Shown here: one piece after another, positions 2,823 to 11,808 of the stretch
How the letters are laid out: every line of letters starts with the position of its first letter
Numbering within the stretch: position 1 is the first letter of the stretch
DNA from: Patescibacteria group bacterium
GTDB lineage: Bacteria; Patescibacteriota; Patescibacteriia; Magasanikbacterales; GWA2-37-8
Length of the DNA stretch: 14,582 bases
Direction: 5' to 3'
Assembly (NCBI GenBank): GCA_004321885.1
Contig: SCQK01000010.1
Span: forward strand, 1 to 14,582
Notes under the pieces: model-generated
Database searches by the model: none
What the model was told of the DNA's origin: nothing
Seen by the model: only the letters and a program-made list of their open reading frames with translations
Position numbers and translations under genes: made by a program

Positions 2823-3017
2823 ATGAAGAAAGAAAATAATAAGCACAAATTTTATAGAGTATATGCGAATCTGCCTCTGAATTTAAGGTCGGAAATAATT
2901 TTAGTTTTGCCCGGGAAAGGGCCTATTACTTGGAATGTAGCGTATTTAGAAATTGAAAACGAGACTGAATTGGGTGAAATAATTTTGGAAAAATTGGAGG
3001 CATTGCAAATAATATAA
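2823..3017 (+). CDS. Hypothetical small protein (64 aa), acidic C-terminus
   Basis: ORF directly after the promoter. AT-rich. No recognisable motif. First gene of a tightly packed four-gene cluster. Confidence 0.45.
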   Translation: MKKENNKHKFYRVYANLPLNLRSEIILVLPGKGPITWNVAYLEIENETELGEIILEKLEALQII

Positions 3018-3020
3018 AAT

Positions 3021-3233
3021 ATGGAAATTGCGCAAGAAATAAAGGATTTGGTTGTGGCCAGATTGAAAACACTACCGGAGAATACCGGAATTTCCATAGG
3101 GTCCATGGGGAATTTTAGCAAACAAGATTTAATTTCTCACGTGGAAGAAGGAGACGAAGTGGGTCAAAAAATCGCGGAAGTGGAACTGTCTTTTTTGCGC
3201 GGGTTGAAAGACGACATTCTGTATGAATCATAA
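3021..3233 (+). CDS. Hypothetical small acidic protein (70 aa)
   Basis: ORF begins 3 nt after the previous stop. Its stop overlaps the next gene's start by 11 nt (translational coupling). No recognisable motif. Confidence 0.45.
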   Translation: MEIAQEIKDLVVARLKTLPENTGISIGSMGNFSKQDLISHVEEGDEVGQKIAEVELSFLRGLKDDILYES

Positions 3234-3867
3234 AATATTAATTACCCGCCCCAATTACGATTTGACAACTCGTTATATTTCAAGTTGGGCCAAGAATATT
3301 ATTAAATTTGCCGAAGAAAAGGGAAGCGTGGTGCTGGATTTGGAAAAGGAGCGGGCGAATCGTAAAGAATTTGAAAGCATGATAAGAAAACATGAGCCAC
3401 CGTTGATATTTTTAAACGGACACGGCGATTATGATTTAGTTACCGGGCAGGAGGAAGACGTGTTGGTGCGCGTCGGCGATAATGAGACTTTGTTGGATTC
3501 AAAAGTTGTTTATGCGCTATCATGTCGTTCAGGCAAGAAGTTGGGCCCCGAGAGCGTGAAGCGCGGAGCTAAGGCCTACATCGGATATAAGGAGGATTTT
3601 ATTTTTTTATACAACGAAGAACAAAAATCCAGACCCGAACAAGATAAAACAGCCGAGATTTTTTCAGAGCCGTCAAATCAGGTAATGGTTTCTTTGTTAA
3701 AAAATCACACGGCGAAAGAGGCCTGCAAGAAAAGCAAGGAATCATATTTTCGGCGGATTAGAAAATTGCTTTATAGCAAAGCTACGAGCGCGGAGAGTGC
3801 GGTTGTTAGATTTTTAATTTGGGATATGCAAAATTTGGTTTGCTATGAGCAAGAGGCGCAAAAATAA
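3223..3867 (+). CDS. Putative caspase-like (caspase-hemoglobinase fold, clan CD-like) cysteine peptidase domain protein
   Basis: Predicted alternating beta/alpha order: KILIT, helix, VVLDL, helix, PLIFLNGHG (His-Gly after strand 3), then VVYALSCRSG (Cys after strand 4). This is the topology and dyad placement of caspase/metacaspase/gingipain-type peptidases (compare metacaspase H-Y-S-G-H-G and D-S-C-H-S-G). The His-Cys spacing of about 33 aa is on the short side. Call is tentative. Confidence 0.35.
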   Translation: MNHKILITRPNYDLTTRYISSWAKNIIKFAEEKGSVVLDLEKERANRKEFESMIRKHEPPLIFLNGHGDYDLVTGQEEDVLVRVGDNETLLDSKVVYALSCRSGKKLGPESVKRGAKAYIGYKEDFIFLYNEEQKSRPEQDKTAEIFSEPSNQVMVSLLKNHTAKEACKKSKESYFRRIRKLLYSKATSAESAVVRFLIWDMQNLVCYEQEAQK

Positions 3868-3904: not shown

Positions 3905-6055
3905 ATGCGTGTCTTGGCAGAAGAAAATTTTGAGAAAGAAGTCAAGGAAAATTTTTTGTTTCAATTTTTCGTTCCCAAAGCCGGCGTTTATTTTATTGAA
4001 ATCAGCGCGTCAGCCAAGAGCTGGTGGCAGAATTTATTAAAGTTTCGTTCGTTTTTTCGCGATGATGATTTGGCTTTAAAAATAGACGAGTCCGGATTTG
4101 ACAAACTTTCCGGCAAACGGGGCATATTTGATGGTGAAGCGGCGTGGAACGGCAACAAGTTGAAGAGTTTGGAGCAAACTATTGTTTTTTTACTGCCGCT
4201 TGGCGCCGGGGCGCACAAAATACAATTTTTTTCCGACCAAAGACCGGTTCTAAAAAAAATTATTGTCTACGAAAGTGGGAGAAATATTTTATATTCGCCG
4301 TCACCCGCGTCGCCGCGGGATGGCAATCGCAGGCCATGGCTGACGTTCGCATTTAAGGACCTTGTGATAAAAAATCTAAAAGTGAAAGCCAAAGCGGACG
4401 CGGACAAAGACGATTCTGATATTAAACTTGTAATTAACGGTCAAGTTGAAAAAAACGAAGAGTCAAAATCGCACCATGGCTGGTATTGGTGCGGCCGTGT
4501 TTTGAAAGGGAAAGCTAAAATTTTTGATAAAAGTTTTAATCGTTCGGAAGGAAGCGCCCGTTTTATTGAATTTTGGACTGATGGAATGCCGTTGTTAGAA
4601 GAGATTAAAATGCGAGTGACGGAAAAGGGGGTTGAAAAAACCGGTCGGGTTGTCGTGCGTAAGGACATTGTCGGTTCGGGATTGTCGGAGGTAAACCTGC
4701 GCGCGGCGGCTGATGAGAATGGCGATATAACCGGGAAGATAAAAACAGGAGAAGAGGTGTTGATAGATGAAATAGCTGTTTCGGGTAGTAATGTGGCGGG
4801 TATGCTGTCAAATAATTGGCATGGAGTTTATTATAATGGAATGAGCGGGTATGTGCACTCTTCTCTCATAGAACTTGCGGGGCAAGAGAGAAAAAGAATT
4901 ACCGATTTTATTCAAACCAAAGCCGGAGAATTGGGGATTGATAAAAATTTAGCCTTGAATTTGGCTTACTGCGAATCAAAGTGGCTACCGTTCGCGATTT
5001 CGGAAACCGGGAATAAAGGCATTTTTGAACTCGGAGGGGATACAATAATTGAGATAAATGGGAAATTAGGCGGTAATATTCGCGACCCTTATGACCCGTG
5101 GCAAAATATTGACGGGGGCCTGAAATATTTGAGGTTTCTTTTAGAGAGATACAAAGACACAGAAAATAGTTTGGAAAAATCCATTACCGCGTGGAGCCGC
5201 GGACCGGACAGAGTGCCGTATAACAAGCCATTTGTTTACGCCGAGCAATCCAGAGGAGCGCAGGCGCTTCTTGATGGCGTTTTGAAATCAAAGGCAGGAG
5301 AGAATATATTAAAAGCACTCGGGGCGCTGGTTGTTTTTTTGATTTTAGGTTTTGGGGCCATTGCCTTCGCCTCAAGCGGCGACAACGCAAGGGAGCGGCT
5401 GTGGTATTTGAAATTGGAGCGCGGAGTTGAGCTTGGACTGGAGCACGCGGCCTGGCTCGTGGACATTGGCGAGGTTGACTTGGCGGACTTTGAAGATGAT
5501 TTTGATTTGGACGGCGAGTTTGAAAAAGTCCAATTTTTTGTTTTCCCCTCAAATGTTGATGACGGGTATTTTACCCGCGTATTTCTTTCGGCGACTGAAT
5601 ATTTTGACGTGGACGGCATATTTATAGAGGGCAAAGGTCTTGATTTAAACGGCGGCGGAGAAAAAGAGCTTTTTGTCAGGACTGTGAAAGATGATATTTT
5701 TAATTTGTATATTTTTAGTTTGCGGGATAAAAAATTGCGTTTGTTTCCAGTGTATGACAACGAGATTACGCGGGAAAATGTAAAGAGCATTAAGTCAAAA
5801 TTTAGAATAGAAAACACACGCACTGGTGATGGAGATGGGAATGAGGCGGTTGCCTTTATAGCCAAACGAGCCAATTATAAGGGAGAATATTGCGATTGGT
5901 ATAACACTTTGGAATATTACGAGTGGAATGGAGTCGGTTTTGAAAAAAGTAGGACAGAAGCAGAGCCGCTTTTTCCGGAGGGTCATTGCGCCGCCCCAAG
6001 CAGTAGACCCGAATTATATGGCCCTGCGCCCACCATACAATGGTCGGTGAATTAA
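3905..6055 (+). CDS. Multidomain protein. N-terminal beta-rich region, then bacterial SH3 (SH3b) domain, then SLT/GH23 lytic transglycosylase domain, then a single TM helix, then an acidic C-terminal domain
   Basis: AGGAGA RBS at 3895. SH3b match: VNLRAAADENGDITGKIKTGEEVLIDE...WHGVYYNGMSGYVHSSLIEL. SLT match: LAYCESKWLPFAISETGNKGIFELGG (catalytic E-S then A.S..G..G motif), DPYDPWQNIDGGLKYLRFLLERY (DP..NI..G..YL motif) and ITAWSRGPDRV (AYNAG-like motif). One hydrophobic helix ILKALGALVVFLILGFGAIAFASS at about residue 470. No N-terminal signal peptide. Confidence 0.8.
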   Translation: MRVLAEENFEKEVKENFLFQFFVPKAGVYFIEISASAKSWWQNLLKFRSFFRDDDLALKIDESGFDKLSGKRGIFDGEAAWNGNKLKSLEQTIVFLLPLGAGAHKIQFFSDQRPVLKKIIVYESGRNILYSPSPASPRDGNRRPWLTFAFKDLVIKNLKVKAKADADKDDSDIKLVINGQVEKNEESKSHHGWYWCGRVLKGKAKIFDKSFNRSEGSARFIEFWTDGMPLLEEIKMRVTEKGVEKTGRVVVRKDIVGSGLSEVNLRAAADENGDITGKIKTGEEVLIDEIAVSGSNVAGMLSNNWHGVYYNGMSGYVHSSLIELAGQERKRITDFIQTKAGELGIDKNLALNLAYCESKWLPFAISETGNKGIFELGGDTIIEINGKLGGNIRDPYDPWQNIDGGLKYLRFLLERYKDTENSLEKSITAWSRGPDRVPYNKPFVYAEQSRGAQALLDGVLKSKAGENILKALGALVVFLILGFGAIAFASSGDNARERLWYLKLERGVELGLEHAAWLVDIGEVDLADFEDDFDLDGEFEKVQFFVFPSNVDDGYFTRVFLSATEYFDVDGIFIEGKGLDLNGGGEKELFVRTVKDDIFNLYIFSLRDKKLRLFPVYDNEITRENVKSIKSKFRIENTRTGDGDGNEAVAFIAKRANYKGEYCDWYNTLEYYEWNGVGFEKSRTEAEPLFPEGHCAAPSSRPELYGPAPTIQWSVN

Positions 6056-6112
6056 AAAATTTTAGGAGATATATGTTAAATATTTTTAACGTAAAAAATC
6101 ATAACGGGAACC

Positions 6113-6191
6113 GCGATACCCCCTCCTCACCTCCCCCTTATAAAGGGGGAGGAGTCGCCGCCGCCGGTAATTCCTCCCCTATAAGGGGAGG
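6113..6191. repeat. Family-1 hairpin elements, two adjacent copies. ATACCCCCTC...CCTCCCCC-TTATAAA-GGGGGAGG at 6113..6152. A shorter CCTCCCC-TATAA-GGGGAGG at 6173..6191
   Basis: Perfect 8-bp stem with 7-nt loop at 6130..6152. The same 23-mer recurs at 8589..8611, and the 5' flank ATACCCCCTC recurs at 8575. Lies in the intergenic region after the 716-aa gene; no T-tract follows. Confidence 0.7.
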
Positions 6192-6270
6192 GACAACCCC
6201 CCACGCCAAAAATTTTGGTGTGGGGGTAAAGGGTGGGGTTAAAACAAATTTCACCAAATATCAGGACCCG

Positions 6271-7101
6271 GAAAAGGGGATGAGCGGCGGCCAGCTCAAA
6301 TGGAGTTTGTGGTTTTCGGGCCGTCGGGTGATTTTTTACCGGGCCGCGCTTATTTTTGTCGCGGCCGCGGCCATAATTATCTGGCTGTTCAGCCTGTGGC
6401 GTTGGGTATTTTTTATCATAGAAATTCCCGATGCCAGGCGCGTGCGCGCCGAGCTCGCCCGCTTTGACGATTATAGCATCATCAATCAACGCATCGGGTT
6501 TCAGCCGGTGCAGATTTTCGGCGCCCAGTTTTTGGCGAGCGGGAAAGACAAATACGACGTCGCGGCCGAGATGTTTAATCCGAACACGCGGTCAGTGGTG
6601 TTTTTTGATTATTATTTTTTTTATAATAATACCTCCACTCCAAAACAATCCGCGTTTTTATTGCCGGGCCAAAGGCGGCCGCTGGTGGCTTTGGGCCTGG
6701 CCGGCGCCGCGGGCGAGCCGGTTTTGCATATAGAAAACGTGAAGTGGAAAAAAATTTCCGCTCACGATGTCAGCGACCCGAAGCAGTATCAGGATTATCG
6801 CCTAAATTTCGCGGTGACGGATTTTGTTTTTTCACCGGCTTCGGAAAGCGGGGCCGATTTTCCGGCCGTGAAATTTAATTTGACCAATAACGGTCCGTAC
6901 AGCTATAATGCCCCCAAGTTTTTGATTGGGCTGACGCAAAATGAGGAGCTGGTGAGCGTTTTTAGGGCGGATTTTGCTTCGTTTGCGTATGGCGAGACAA
7001 AAAATATGGATATTCGGCTGTTTGTTCCGAATGCCTCGGCCGCGGGCGCGATTGTTTATCCGCTCATAAACATTTATGATAAGGAGGCCTATCTGCGATG
7101 A
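6271..7101 (+). CDS. Hypothetical membrane-anchored protein (N-terminal TM, then extracytoplasmic domain). Translationally coupled to the SEDS gene
   Basis: The ORF track gives 6040..7101, but the first 77 codons are low-complexity readthrough of the palindromic repeats. ATG 6271 is preceded by GAAAAGGGG. Product has a TM segment ALIFVAAAAIIIWLFSLWRWVFFII. Stop TGA overlaps the ATG of the next gene (ATGA at 7098). Confidence 0.6.
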   Translation, partial: EKGMSGGQLKWSLWFSGRRVIFYRAALIFVAAAAIIIWLFSLWRWVFFIIEIPDARRVRAELARFDDYSIINQRIGFQPVQIFGAQFLASGKDKYDVAAEMFNPNTRSVVFFDYYFFYNNTSTPKQSAFLLPGQRRPLVALGLAGAAGEPVLHIENVKWKKISAHDVSDPKQYQDYRLNFAVTDFVFSPASESGADFPAVKFNLTNNGPYSYNAPKFLIGLTQNEELVSVFRADFASFAYGETKNMDIRLFVPNASAAGAIVYPLINIYDKEAYLR

Positions 7102-8236: not shown

Positions 8237-8575
8237 ATGTCTTTTAATAAAAAAAGCAAGGGATTTTCCGAGTGGGAGCAGAGCGCGAAGATGCTCGGCA
8301 CCTGTACGGTTTGCGGGCGGGCCTATGGCTCGGGCAAAATGAAAATTCTGAAAAATGAAAAAAAGTCGCGCCTTTTGCACGCGACTTGCGCGTTTTGCAA
8401 CAGTCATTTTATGGCCATGCTGATGAAAATGGGCGGCGGGATGAGCACGATAGGCATGGTGACGGATTTGAGCCTGAATGATTCCAGGCGCCTGCTGGAT
8501 AAAGCGCCGATTACCGTGAATGAAGCCATAGAGGGGTATAAATATATCAATGAAAAGTTTTCACAAGCGAAGTAA
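8237..8575 (+). CDS. Hypothetical small protein with a CxxC...CxxC zinc-ribbon motif
   Basis: Product contains CTVCG and CAFCN 26 residues apart. No family recognised. Confidence 0.5.
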   Translation: MSFNKKSKGFSEWEQSAKMLGTCTVCGRAYGSGKMKILKNEKKSRLLHATCAFCNSHFMAMLMKMGGGMSTIGMVTDLSLNDSRRLLDKAPITVNEAIEGYKYINEKFSQAK

Positions 8576-8624
8576 TACCCCCTCTTGTCCTCCCCCTTAT
8601 AAAGGGGGAGGTTAGGTAGGGGTA
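8575..8624. repeat. Family-1 hairpin element: ATACCCCCTCTTGTCCTCCCCCTTATAAAGGGGGAGG with an imperfect outer stem TACCCCCT/AGGGGTAT
   Basis: The 23-mer core is identical to 6130..6152. Located between the zinc-ribbon gene stop and the rplY RBS. Confidence 0.7.
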
Positions 8625-8630
8625 TATAAT

Positions 8631-9365: not shown

Positions 9366-10301
9366 TTATTTTATAGAAATTATTACCAGCCGATCTCGCC
9401 CCGCGAGGTCGGTTTTGATTTCGCAGGATGAGGCGGGCAGGTATTTTTTTATCAGGGTTTTTATGGCTTCGCTTTGGCGCGGGTCTATTTCCAGGAGTAT
9501 TGTCATTGCGAGGCCGCTTGCGGCCGAAGCAATCCCATCCGTTATGGCAAGGGATTGCTTTGCTCCACTTCGTTCCGTTCGCAATGACAGTTGGGACAAC
9601 AGTTCTTCGTACAGCGACAACCCGTTTATCGCGTCCGCGACCAGCGCGCCCCGCGGCTCTTTTTGGATAGAGGGTTCTTTGCCGTATTGCTCGGCCGTGA
9701 GATAGGGCAGATTGGCGGTGATGATGAGCGAAGAATATTGAATAGAGAATTGAGAATTATGGATAACGGGTTCCAGCAAATTTCCATGCAGAAATTTTAT
9801 TTTTACCCCGTGCTTTTTGGCGTTTTTTTTGGCGACGCGTAGGGCCGCGCGGGAAATGTCTGTGGCGATAAGTTTGATTGACCCCCTCTTAGTCTCCCCC
9901 TTAGGCGCGCTTCGCGCGCGGGAAGCAAGGGGGAGAGAACGAGCGACCGCAATCGGCATGCATCCGCTTCCCGTTCCTACGTCAATCAAAATCGTCTTCT
10001 CTATTCTCAATTCTCTATTCTCAATTCTTCGCACAACCTCCTCCACCATCAATTCGGTTTCGGGCCGGGGGATTAAGACATTTTTGTTCACCAAAAAATC
10101 CAGGCCGTAAAATTCCTTGTGTCCGGTGATGTAGGCGATGGGCCAGCCGCGCTCGCGGAGCCGGCAGTAGTATTTGAACTTCACCCGTTTCCAAAAACTC
10201 GGTTTGTATTCCGGGTGCGCCAAGATAAATTCGCGCGATTTGCCGATAGCGTGCGCTAAAAGAATTTCCGATTTAAGGTTTTCTAAACGTGAAAAAATCA
10301 T
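9366..10301 (-). CDS. prmC: Release factor glutamine methyltransferase PrmC (HemK). Carries two in-frame insertions that coincide with palindromic elements
   Basis: Motifs ..ILIDVGTGSGCMPIAVA.., ..LIITANLPYL.. (NPPY-type) and the C-terminal ..DLAGRDRLV... Extra segments LPLASRARSAPKGETKRGS and TERSGAKQSLAITDGIASAASGLAMT map exactly onto the repeats at 9881..9937 and 9502..9588. Confidence 0.85.
   Translation of the reverse strand: MIFSRLENLKSEILLAHAIGKSREFILAHPEYKPSFWKRVKFKYYCRLRERGWPIAYITGHKEFYGLDFLVNKNVLIPRPETELMVEEVVRRIENRELRIEKTILIDVGTGSGCMPIAVARSLPLASRARSAPKGETKRGSIKLIATDISRAALRVAKKNAKKHGVKIKFLHGNLLEPVIHNSQFSIQYSSLIITANLPYLTAEQYGKEPSIQKEPRGALVADAINGLSLYEELLSQLSLRTERSGAKQSLAITDGIASAASGLAMTILLEIDPRQSEAIKTLIKKYLPASSCEIKTDLAGRDRLVIISIK
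9502..9588. repeat. Family-2 palindromic element: GTCATTGCGAGG, GGCCGCTTGCGGCC, GAAGCAATCCC, loop, GGGATTGCTT, ...CGCAATGAC. Right arm degenerate. Sits in-frame inside prmC
   Basis: Nested inverted repeats read directly. Shares ends and inner arms with the copy at 10886..10978. On the minus strand it encodes ..LSLRTERSGAKQSLAITDGIASAASGLAMT... Confidence 0.75.
9881..9937. repeat. Family-1 related hairpin: ACCCCCTCTTAGTCTCCCCCTT with a 10-bp stem TCTCCCCCTT/AAGGGGGAGA around a GC-palindromic loop GCGCGCTTCGCGCGC. Sits in-frame inside prmC
   Basis: The 5' part matches the family-1 flank ACCCCCTCTT(G/A)T(C)CTCCCCCTT seen at 8577 and 6117. Encodes the PrmC insertion ARSLPLASRARSAPKGETKRGS. Confidence 0.7.
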
Positions 10302-11808
10302 AGCTGTTTAATTCTATCGGATTATTTATATCGCGCCAGCCTTTTTTCCGCAAAGCCGAGGCAATGTCAAGCTCGCCCAGCGCCGGGCTTTGCAAAAGCA
10401 AAAGTTCGTCAAAATTTTTCAGGTTCGCGCTTTCTATCCAACCGTTGATTTCTTTCTCATCGCGATTCCAGCGCCAATAATTTTTCGTTATCACGTCAAA
10501 ATCATAATTGGCGCCAAGGCCCGGGCCCCGATAGGGGACAAGCTGAATCGGGATTTTGATGTAGCGTTCCAAGAGGGGTTTGTCTATAAAATTGCTGTAC
10601 ACCAGCGCCTGTTTTTTGGACGGATTGTAGCGGGCGGAGATTTCTTGGCGCAGGGGCCGCCAGTCATTGAGCGGCAACATTGAGTTTAGTTTTTGCAGAC
10701 CGGGCAGAGAAATAACAACCGTCGCCAAGACCACCCATTGCCAGCGCCCCAGAAATCGCCAGAGCAAAAAAGCCATCAGCAGGATGACCCACGGATAAGC
10801 GGTTTCCACGAATTTGATGTCGTAAAGCCCGAGGGCGTAAGACACGATAAGGGGAAAGAGAATGAGCACGAGGAGGGGAATTACTGTCATTGCGAGGCCT
10901 GAGGCCGAAGCAATCCCTTCCGATAAAGTTTGGGATTGCTTCGTCGTCCGGTCATCCGACCGGACTCCTCGCAATGACAAAACCAAGCCGGCGGCAAATC
11001 CGGCCATGACAAGCAGGCCGAAAGGCCACCAAGCGATACCCGTAAACATTATTTGCATCGGGGTAATGAGTTGTAAAAATTTTGGCGGCACGTGCAAAAA
11101 CCACGCCAGTTGGGCCGTGTCTATATTGAATTTTGAGACAAGAGACGGGATGGCCCACACCAGCCAGAGGCCGGCTGGAGCAAGATTTATTTTAATCCAA
11201 CCCCGCAGCGCCGTTCCGCTGTCATTCCTCCGACTAAGTACTGGGGAATCCAGTATCAATATAATAAACTGGGCCGCGAAAACAAAAAGCGCGGTGAGGT
11301 GGGTGTAGAGGAGCAAGAGGGAAATGAGGGCGTAGAATGTCGCATCCGCCGCTCTTTGAGGACTTAAAAACACTCGTTCAAAATAATCAAAAGATAATAT
11401 TACCAGCAACAAAAATAGCGTGTAGCCGCGCCCGGTGGCCGAAAGCCAAATATGATAAGGAGAAATAGACAGCAGAAGGGCGGAGATAAGGGCTATATTT
11501 TCGTCAAACAACCTTTTGGTCACGCGATAGAGCGCCGCAATGCCCAGCAGTCCGAAAAGCAGGCTGGGCAAGCGCGTAAAAAATTCATTGGCCGGAAAAA
11601 TATAAAACCATAATTTTAGGAACAGCATGTGCAGGGGCGGATTGGTTTCCCATGTCCAAAATTGAATGCTTTGGCCCCATGGTTTTTGGCTGTAGGTGAA
11701 AGAAAATATTTCATCGTGCCAAAAATCGCCGTAGCGCGCCAGAACATACGCGCGCGCGGCCAGCGCGAGAAGCAAGATGATGATAAACAATTTCGCGGCT
11801 TTACGCAT
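10273..11808 (-). CDS. GT-C fold glycosyltransferase of the PMT/ArnT family (GT39/GT83-like), polytopic membrane protein
   Basis: N-terminal TM then the first-loop DE motif (..FWHDEIFSF..), ..[15 protein letters not shown].., about 11 predicted TM segments and a C-terminal soluble domain. Start overlaps the prfA stop by 8 nt; stop overlaps the prmC start by 29 nt. Contains two in-frame palindromic-element insertions. Confidence 0.75.
10886..10978. repeat. Family-2 palindromic element, intact copy. GTCATTGCGAGG, GCCTGAGGC, GAAGCAATCCC, loop, GGGATTGCTTC, TCCGGTCATCCGACCGGA, CCTCGCAATGAC. Sits in-frame inside the GT-C gene
   Basis: Perfect 12-bp terminal inverted repeat plus three internal hairpins. 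Encodes ..[32 protein letters not shown].. in the same relative frame as the prmC copy. Confidence 0.8.
11221..11251. repeat. Family-3 related degenerate hairpin GTCATTCC-TCCGACTAAGTACTG-GGGAATCC inside the GT-C gene
   Basis: Shares GTCATTCC and the CCGACTAAGT core with 12885..12915. Encodes [11 protein letters not shown] in frame. Confidence 0.5.

Follow-up and report, generated by a model that had tools for sequence, protein, structure and literature searches.

The A-B-C cassette

We analysed a stretch of 14,582 nucleotides (nt) from a Patescibacteria group bacterium (contig SCQK01000010.1 of assembly GCA_004321885.1, hereafter the window), focusing on gene C, an open reading frame (ORF) whose product is a candidate caspase-fold cysteine peptidase, and on genes A and B, the two small genes that precede it. 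An earlier note, made from the letters of this DNA, had placed a 214-residue ORF at positions 3223-3867 of the forward strand, and translation confirmed both its extent and its length. The genes and sites of the cassette are as follows.

2788-2816, + strand: possible cassette promoter, a promoter-like sequence (TTGAAA-17-TAGAAT) that closely precedes gene A (sigma-70-type consensus match only)
2823-3017, + strand: gene A, encoding a partner protein of 64 amino acids (aa)
2868-2888, + strand: invariant loop motif N16-L17-P18-x-N20-x-R22 of gene A
3021-3233, + strand: gene B, encoding a 70-aa partner protein, its 3' end overlapping the start of gene C by 11 nt
3223-3867, + strand: gene C, encoding the 214-aa candidate clan CD (caspase/gingipain-fold) cysteine peptidase of an unannotated family

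The promoter-like site matches the consensus at 10 of 12 positions, the best sigma-70-type match between positions 2200 and 4100.

A database search with the C protein retrieved 301 homologues, nearly all of 210-220 residues, and an exhaustive profile search with the C family recovered 2,376 representatives of 50%-identity clusters at E<=1e-3 (1,287 at E<=1e-10). These numbers indicate that ORF 3223-3867 is a real conserved gene and no chance ORF. The identical database protein is labelled 'hypothetical protein EPN28_02815 [Patescibacteria group bacterium]'. The C protein has neither a signal peptide nor a transmembrane (TM) segment and starts directly with its first strand. Its architecture of approximately 214 residues is uniform across the 273 family sequences retrieved; none of the three sequences of 226 aa or more among them contains an A- or B-like domain, and no natural fusion of C with A or B was found among family members. 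The long 'homologues' comprise P0041, a frameshift chimera, and P0157, a TM-anchored variant of 246 aa that ends in a hydrophobic C-terminal helix (…ILPYLLGFLFIIGLALWFIIK), as does a viral relative described below. The sequences thus suggest that membrane-anchored variants of this otherwise soluble putative protease occur occasionally.

The cassette was compared across 57 loci from species-representative genomes, the yield of a pattern-limited scan of 185,579 species representatives, and five further loci from homologue look-ups. An iterative search restricted to these loci detected homologues of A and B wherever the upstream DNA was long enough, always with unchanged gene order and strand; the closed genomes of archaeon GW2011_AR20 (CP010426) and OY969557 are among these loci. 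An overlap of gene B with gene C is seen in 52 of 53 loci, at a median of -11 nt, and A and B are separated by a median gap of 5 nt. The pairwise distance matrices of the three proteins correlate (r = 0.59, 0.61 and, for B and C, 0.74; Mantel p<=0.001 for each). A-B-C is a translationally coupled, co-evolving three-gene unit that occurs in variable contexts. In the metagenome-assembled genome CAWDHP01, two nearly identical cassettes lie on different contigs (L049 and L050), which may reflect either a genuine duplication or redundancy of the assembly at strain level.

Neither A nor B matched a family in Pfam, NCBIfam, PHROGs or PADLOC, and sequence and profile searches of both against the PDB returned chance-level matches only, for example to ErmC' and to a designed protein. 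The sequence pattern suggests that B follows the same order of elements as A. When A and B were compared by hhalign, the same segment was always aligned in the same register (P 0.002-0.006, probability 6-14%); because the probability is low despite these P values, paralogy of A and B is only suggestive. The invariant segment of A ('YaNLPlNlReeII', residues 16-22, positions 2868-2888) resembles residues 99-111 of ErmC' ('FGNIPYNISTDII'), which we take to be the catalytic motif IV of the ribosomal RNA adenine methyltransferase. With a PDB profile E-value of 0.41 and in a protein of 64 aa, this likeness is almost certainly coincidence.

Predicted fold of C

The structure of C was modelled with AlphaFold2 (AF2) on a 34-sequence alignment, and the model is of very high confidence (mean predicted local distance difference test score 94.6; predicted template modelling score 0.91). 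Its elements, in residue numbers, are:

N-terminal half: strand 1 (4-9), helix 1 (14-32), strand 2 (36-41), helix 2 (47-57)
Middle: strand 3 (61-65, LIFLN), hairpin (72-74 and 80-83), short helix (88-91)
C-terminal half: strand 4 (95-99, VVYAL), helix (107-113), strand 5 (118-122), three helices (142-204), strand 6 (205-209)

The caspase/haemoglobinase fold of clan CD is defined by a six-stranded sheet of order 2-1-3-4-5-6 with an antiparallel last strand and five major helices. Strand 3 has the catalytic His, with a Gly after it, at its C-terminal end and strand 4 has the catalytic Cys at the corresponding place, and loop L3, which joins strand 3 to helix 3, bears a small beta section (McLuskey & Mottram, PMC4357240). 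In the AF2 model of C the elements follow one another as in this fold: we find the six-stranded sheet with its flanking helices, G66-H67-G68 following strand 3 and S100-C101 following strand 4, and a hairpin at 72-74 and 80-83 in the place of the L3 beta section. The model thus agrees with the strand/helix alternation and with the placement of His-Gly after strand 3 and Cys after strand 4 that had been read from the sequence. The earlier view that a p10-like extension is absent does not hold: strands 5 and 6, the equivalent of 'p10', are present and separated by the three helices, so that all six canonical sheet strands are accounted for.

Structure searches with the model returned hydrolases as closest matches, namely gingipains (family C25) and CHAT proteases. 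The similarity to C14 was weaker than that to C25 and CHAT; PIGK and asparaginyl ligases were also among the matches, and receiver and B12-binding domains ranked lower in both searches. A comparison with C14, C25 and C13, proposed as a check in the earlier note, thus came out in favour of the fold at the level of structure, with gingipains and CHAT as best matches, but gave no match to a Pfam profile. The C protein of the window and 34 family members had no Pfam match even at E<=10, and C had no meaningful match among Pfam, NCBIfam, PHROGs and PADLOC models. PDB sequence and profile searches with C returned chance-level matches only (e.g. an aminotransferase and a ThuA-like protein), with no gingipain among the matches of the family profile. 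An hhalign comparison of the C family profile with residues 141-348 of RgpB, its catalytic subdomain, was likewise not significant (probability 0.16%), the single segment aligned being NGHG of C on TGHG of RgpB.

Taken together, the model indicates that C is very likely a clan CD cysteine protease of the caspase/gingipain fold, and an unusually small one. Because this fold comes without a significant sequence link to C25, we assign C to clan CD at the level of the fold and not demonstrably to C25, CHAT, C14, C13 or C11. Our literature searches returned no description of the family, and C founds an unannotated clan CD family inside a new three-gene module. The earlier picture of a minimal stand-alone caspase-fold protein is therefore borne out by the AF2 model as regards the fold, but not as regards standing alone, since C is encoded in a cassette with A and B.

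Active site and candidate S1 pocket

Conservation was computed over 250 unique full-length members of the C family. The following sites, all on the + strand, concern the active site.

3259-3261: D13, candidate S1 specificity residue directly before helix 1 (Asp or Glu in 249 of 250 members)
3418-3426: G66-H67-G68, candidate catalytic His between two glycines where strand 3 ends (coordinates verified)
3520-3525: S100-C101, candidate catalytic Cys at the end of strand 4, C101 being encoded at 3523-3525 (coordinates verified)
3583-3600: G121-Y122-K-E-D-F126 after strand 5 (loop L5), candidate substrate-binding loop with an aromatic lid

Only G66, H67, G68 and C101 are conserved in all 250 members. 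The Cys had previously been numbered as residue 100, which is in fact a Ser; the invariant residue is C101. Asp141 is present in 247 members, T8, P10 and N65 are likewise nearly invariant, and G121, Y122 and F126 are each conserved in at least 97%. The sequence of RgpB 141-348, taken from the PDB entry, carries the corresponding motifs G210-H211-G212 and A243-C244, and the His-to-Cys spacing is 34 residues in C versus 33 in RgpB.

In RgpB, the P1 Arg is held by a salt bridge to Asp163 at the start of helix 1 and by the backbone of Gly210 and Gly212, while Gln282 and Trp284 of L5 also bind it, Trp284 acting as a lid (PMC4357240). By analogy, D13 of C may be the topological equivalent of Asp163, and the aromatic L5 loop of C may correspond to the P1-binding L5 of RgpB. 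The S1 pocket of C would then take a basic P1 residue, a proposal of Arg/Lys specificity that we base on residue 13 being acidic in 249 of 250 members, like Asp163 of RgpB. Members of clan CD cleave peptide bonds by means of their Cys and are strict about the P1 residue; we infer that C is an active endopeptidase, probably specific for Arg or Lys.

Distribution and transfer

According to record titles, the cassette occurs among ultra-small bacteria of the candidate phyla radiation (CPR) in Magasanik-, Falkow-, Kuenen-, Ryan-, Lipton-, Nomura-, Roizman-, Moran-, Gottesman-, Taylor- and Vogelbacteria and in Saccharibacteria, and among the likewise ultra-small DPANN archaea in Woesearchaeota, Nanoarchaeota, Micrarchaeota and AR20; the module is restricted to these two groups. 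The archaeal copies resemble bacterial ones (approximately 50% identity) about as closely as they resemble one another, which points to transfer between the domains.

Searches of the IMG/VR viral contigs and of the PLSDB plasmids gave no relatives. A search of GenBank phages gave one diverged match, in the archaeal virus BK063666.1 (Caudoviricetes sp. vir519, host Methanofastidiosa; L063:3196-4139), which encodes a C relative of 249 aa with a C-terminal TM anchor that keeps G-H-G, S-C and Y-K-E-D-F. It is preceded by a 67-aa ORF that overlaps it by 4 nt and aligns weakly with A and B (P about 0.005).

Neighbouring genes

In the window, a gene for an SLT/SH3 hydrolase (lytic transglycosylase; 3905-6055) lies 38 nt downstream of C on the same strand; it has its own Shine-Dalgarno sequence, and no terminator-like site separates the two. 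An SLT gene stands beside C in none of more than 50 other loci. The suggestion that C is co-operonic with a cell-wall hydrolase thus fits the same-strand adjacency seen here but finds no counterpart elsewhere, where the downstream gene encodes a PLD-family protein, a SocA/Panacea protein or another product, often on the opposite strand, and differs in nearly every locus. No fourth conserved cassette gene was found, the most widely shared flanking family occurring in just 5 loci, and 150 flanking ORFs match 149 different Pfam families. The flanks consist mostly of housekeeping genes, with a few of toxin-antitoxin (TA) type or mobile character (HEPN/NTase, SocA_Panacea, Fic, NYN, AAA_14-DUF4143). 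No CRISPR or CBASS families are among the 25 most frequent Pfam families of cassette neighbours, and none of A, B and C matched a PADLOC model.

Proposed mechanism and biological role

On balance we favour, as the probable reading, that C is a cytoplasmic, catalytically competent clan CD endopeptidase encoded by the third gene of a self-contained, coupled A-B-C cassette, whose other two products regulate it or are cleaved by it. In this model, C would be a bare six-stranded catalytic unit with H67 and C101 forming the dyad, and an S1 pocket for Arg/Lys, as in gingipain R, would be made up of the acidic residue 13, the backbone of G-H-G and F126, the aromatic residue of L5. The three genes would be inherited, and transferred among CPR bacteria and DPANN archaea, as a unit.

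In every clan CD family of known activation, some element keeps the enzyme in check, be it a prodomain, an N-terminal segment, a loop or a ligand (PMC4357240). Since C has no prodomain, sensor or spare domain, A and B are most plausibly its regulators or substrates in trans. A and/or B could thus act as trans-acting regulators, as dedicated substrates, or as both. The invariant Arg22 loop of A might sit in the S1 pocket of C, as a prodomain-like inhibitor or as a cleavage site, and B might be an adaptor or sensor.

The patchy distribution across domains and the variable contexts favour a conflict-type role, either TA-like or antiviral, which is our leading guess for the cassette. In its most specific form, A-B-C would be a hitherto unrecognised, ultra-compact protease-based conflict system whose circulation takes in at least one archaeal virus besides CPR bacteria and DPANN archaea. 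As a mini 'prodomain' with its Arg22 loop in S1, A would inhibit C, B would release C when infection, loss of the host cell or another trigger is sensed, and C would then cut its targets after Arg or Lys. We regard this detailed scenario as speculative, and rather doubtful as a whole.

Alternative explanations

The explanation closest to the earlier note is that C stands alone as a minimal caspase and has the co-operonic cell-wall hydrolase as its working partner; it might, for instance, process or activate the SLT/SH3 protein, or act in this way on other envelope proteins encoded downstream. The close, terminator-free arrangement of the two genes in the window speaks for it, but the pairing is absent from all other loci inspected, and C lacks a signal peptide and TM segment whereas the SLT protein, by its translation, has a TM-like hydrophobic segment and probably acts at the envelope; we consider this explanation very improbable. 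Still less credible is a non-peptidase of flavodoxin- or Rossmann-like three-layer architecture (receiver, TIR-like or cobalamin-binding) in which His and Cys coincide by chance. It could draw on the receiver and B12-binding domains lower in both structure searches and on the weak, non-significant aminotransferase and ThuA-like matches of the profile search, set beside a dyad that is invariant in the family.

Two serious competitors of the regulated endopeptidase are left, a transpeptidase or tagging enzyme and a housekeeping maturation module. C might be a transpeptidase or ligase, comparable to the GPI transamidase PIGK or to legumain-type ligases, that attaches A or B as a small-protein tag, given the presence of PIGK and asparaginyl ligases among its structural matches and the co-encoding of two small, highly conserved proteins. 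We judge this to be improbable, as the C-termini of A and B differ in length among loci and show no obvious conserved signal for sorting or ligation, and the closest structural matches of C are hydrolases. Alternatively, C might process A and/or B or another cellular protein in the normal physiology of CPR and DPANN cells, without any role in conflict. Several observations are in keeping with this: the cassette is tightly coupled, A carries the invariant loop motif NLPxNxR, strong purifying selection acts on what is a large family, and most flanking genes are housekeeping genes. The conflict role is the weakest step of our proposal, because no known defence model is matched and because of these flanks. 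Conversely, the context of the cassette is not syntenic, the scan of species representatives yielded just the 57 loci within the limits of its pattern, and archaeal copies are about as near to bacterial copies as they are to one another. These three points fit an accessory, horizontally moving module better than a core housekeeping one, so that we see the housekeeping explanation as unlikely, though it deserves to be taken seriously.

Other features of the window

Upstream of the cassette, the 5'-truncated gene at 8-1564 comprises three tandem units of approximately 230 aa, each ending in '…GSIDDARVYNRxLSAxEIMQLYKMG'; at the DNA level the repeats are spaced by 690 nt and are 70-80% identical. 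To the eye, its predicted product resembles a LamG/concanavalin-like surface protein. An 80-nt direct repeat of 96% identity (1491-1570 and 2185-2264) brackets positions 1587-2179. It corresponds to the 3' end of the LamG-like repeat-protein gene, duplicated just after a HEPN (1587-1865)/nucleotidyltransferase (1796-2179) pair, and this repeat-bracketed, TA-like pair looks like an insertion footprint.

Downstream, a palindromic element (GAAGCAATCCC...GGGATTGCTTCG) occurs at 9516-9560 and 10897-10943, inside two adjacent minus-strand genes that encode a PrmC-like methyltransferase (9366-10301) and a 511-aa membrane protein (10273-11808). Both genes apparently read through it in frame, giving 'GIASA(A)SGLAMT'. 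Another palindromic repeat (…CCCCCTTATAAAGGGGGAGG…) is also present in two copies: one (6116-6153) falls near the 5' end of ORF 6040-7101, which probably starts further downstream in reality, and the other (8575-8625) occupies the spacer that precedes the L25 gene (8631-9365). The two copies of this other repeat may be terminator-like or mobile hairpin elements.

Significance

Clan CD proteases, among them caspases, metacaspases, gingipains, separase and CHAT proteases, play central parts in cell death, in immunity and in virulence, and to our knowledge the well-studied members all carry regulatory domains or prodomains. In the C family the catalytic unit is reduced to approximately 214 residues, and control has apparently been moved to two separately encoded mini-proteins, which makes A-B-C a tractable minimal model for the control of a caspase fold. 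There are thousands of C sequence clusters, yet A, B and C are all 'hypothetical' and absent from Pfam, NCBIfam and PADLOC, so that a description of the family would close a gap in the annotation of CPR and DPANN genomes. We know of few recognised defence systems in these lineages. If A-B-C were a conflict system, the caspase-like immune proteases now coming to light in prokaryotes would gain a new type, and there would be a documented case of such a system passing between bacteria and archaea with a common episymbiotic lifestyle.

Comparison with known systems

The gingipains RgpB and Kgp (C25) have a C-terminal catalytic subdomain that is structurally near C, and RgpB shares its G-H-G motif, but there is no detectable sequence homology between the two groups. 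Gingipains are secreted multidomain virulence proteases of more than 400 residues, with a 229-residue prodomain, an N-terminal four-stranded subdomain that gives a ten-stranded sheet, and an Ig-like domain (PMC4357240). C, in contrast, has 214 residues, is predicted to be cytoplasmic, lacks the prodomain, the extra subdomain and the Ig-like domain, and comes with two small partner genes. As to C25 membership, C matched neither the family profile nor a member sequence, and it has neither the domain architecture nor the secretion of gingipains.

Also among the nearest structural relatives of C are the CHAT proteases of immunity (SAVED-CHAT, TPR-CHAT/Csx29 'Craspase', and the anti-sigma protease DdvA). 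Such proteases carry large sensor domains as fusions (SAVED, TPR or transmembrane) and are linked to CRISPR or CBASS. C differs in that it has no match to the Pfam CHAT profile (PF12770), no fused sensor or other domain, no CRISPR or CBASS families among the 25 most frequent of its neighbours and no PADLOC match. Caspases, metacaspases and orthocaspases (C14) and legumain (C13) share with C the six-stranded fold, the dyad after strands 3 and 4 and the L3 beta section; the Peptidase_C14 profile does not match C.

Type II TA modules and small abortive-infection modules provide a functional analogy only, as compact coupled operons of small proteins and one enzyme in variable contexts, and in some loci A-B-C adjoins other TA genes. 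Unlike type II TA modules, A-B-C matches no known TA or defence family and consists of three components that are strictly conserved.
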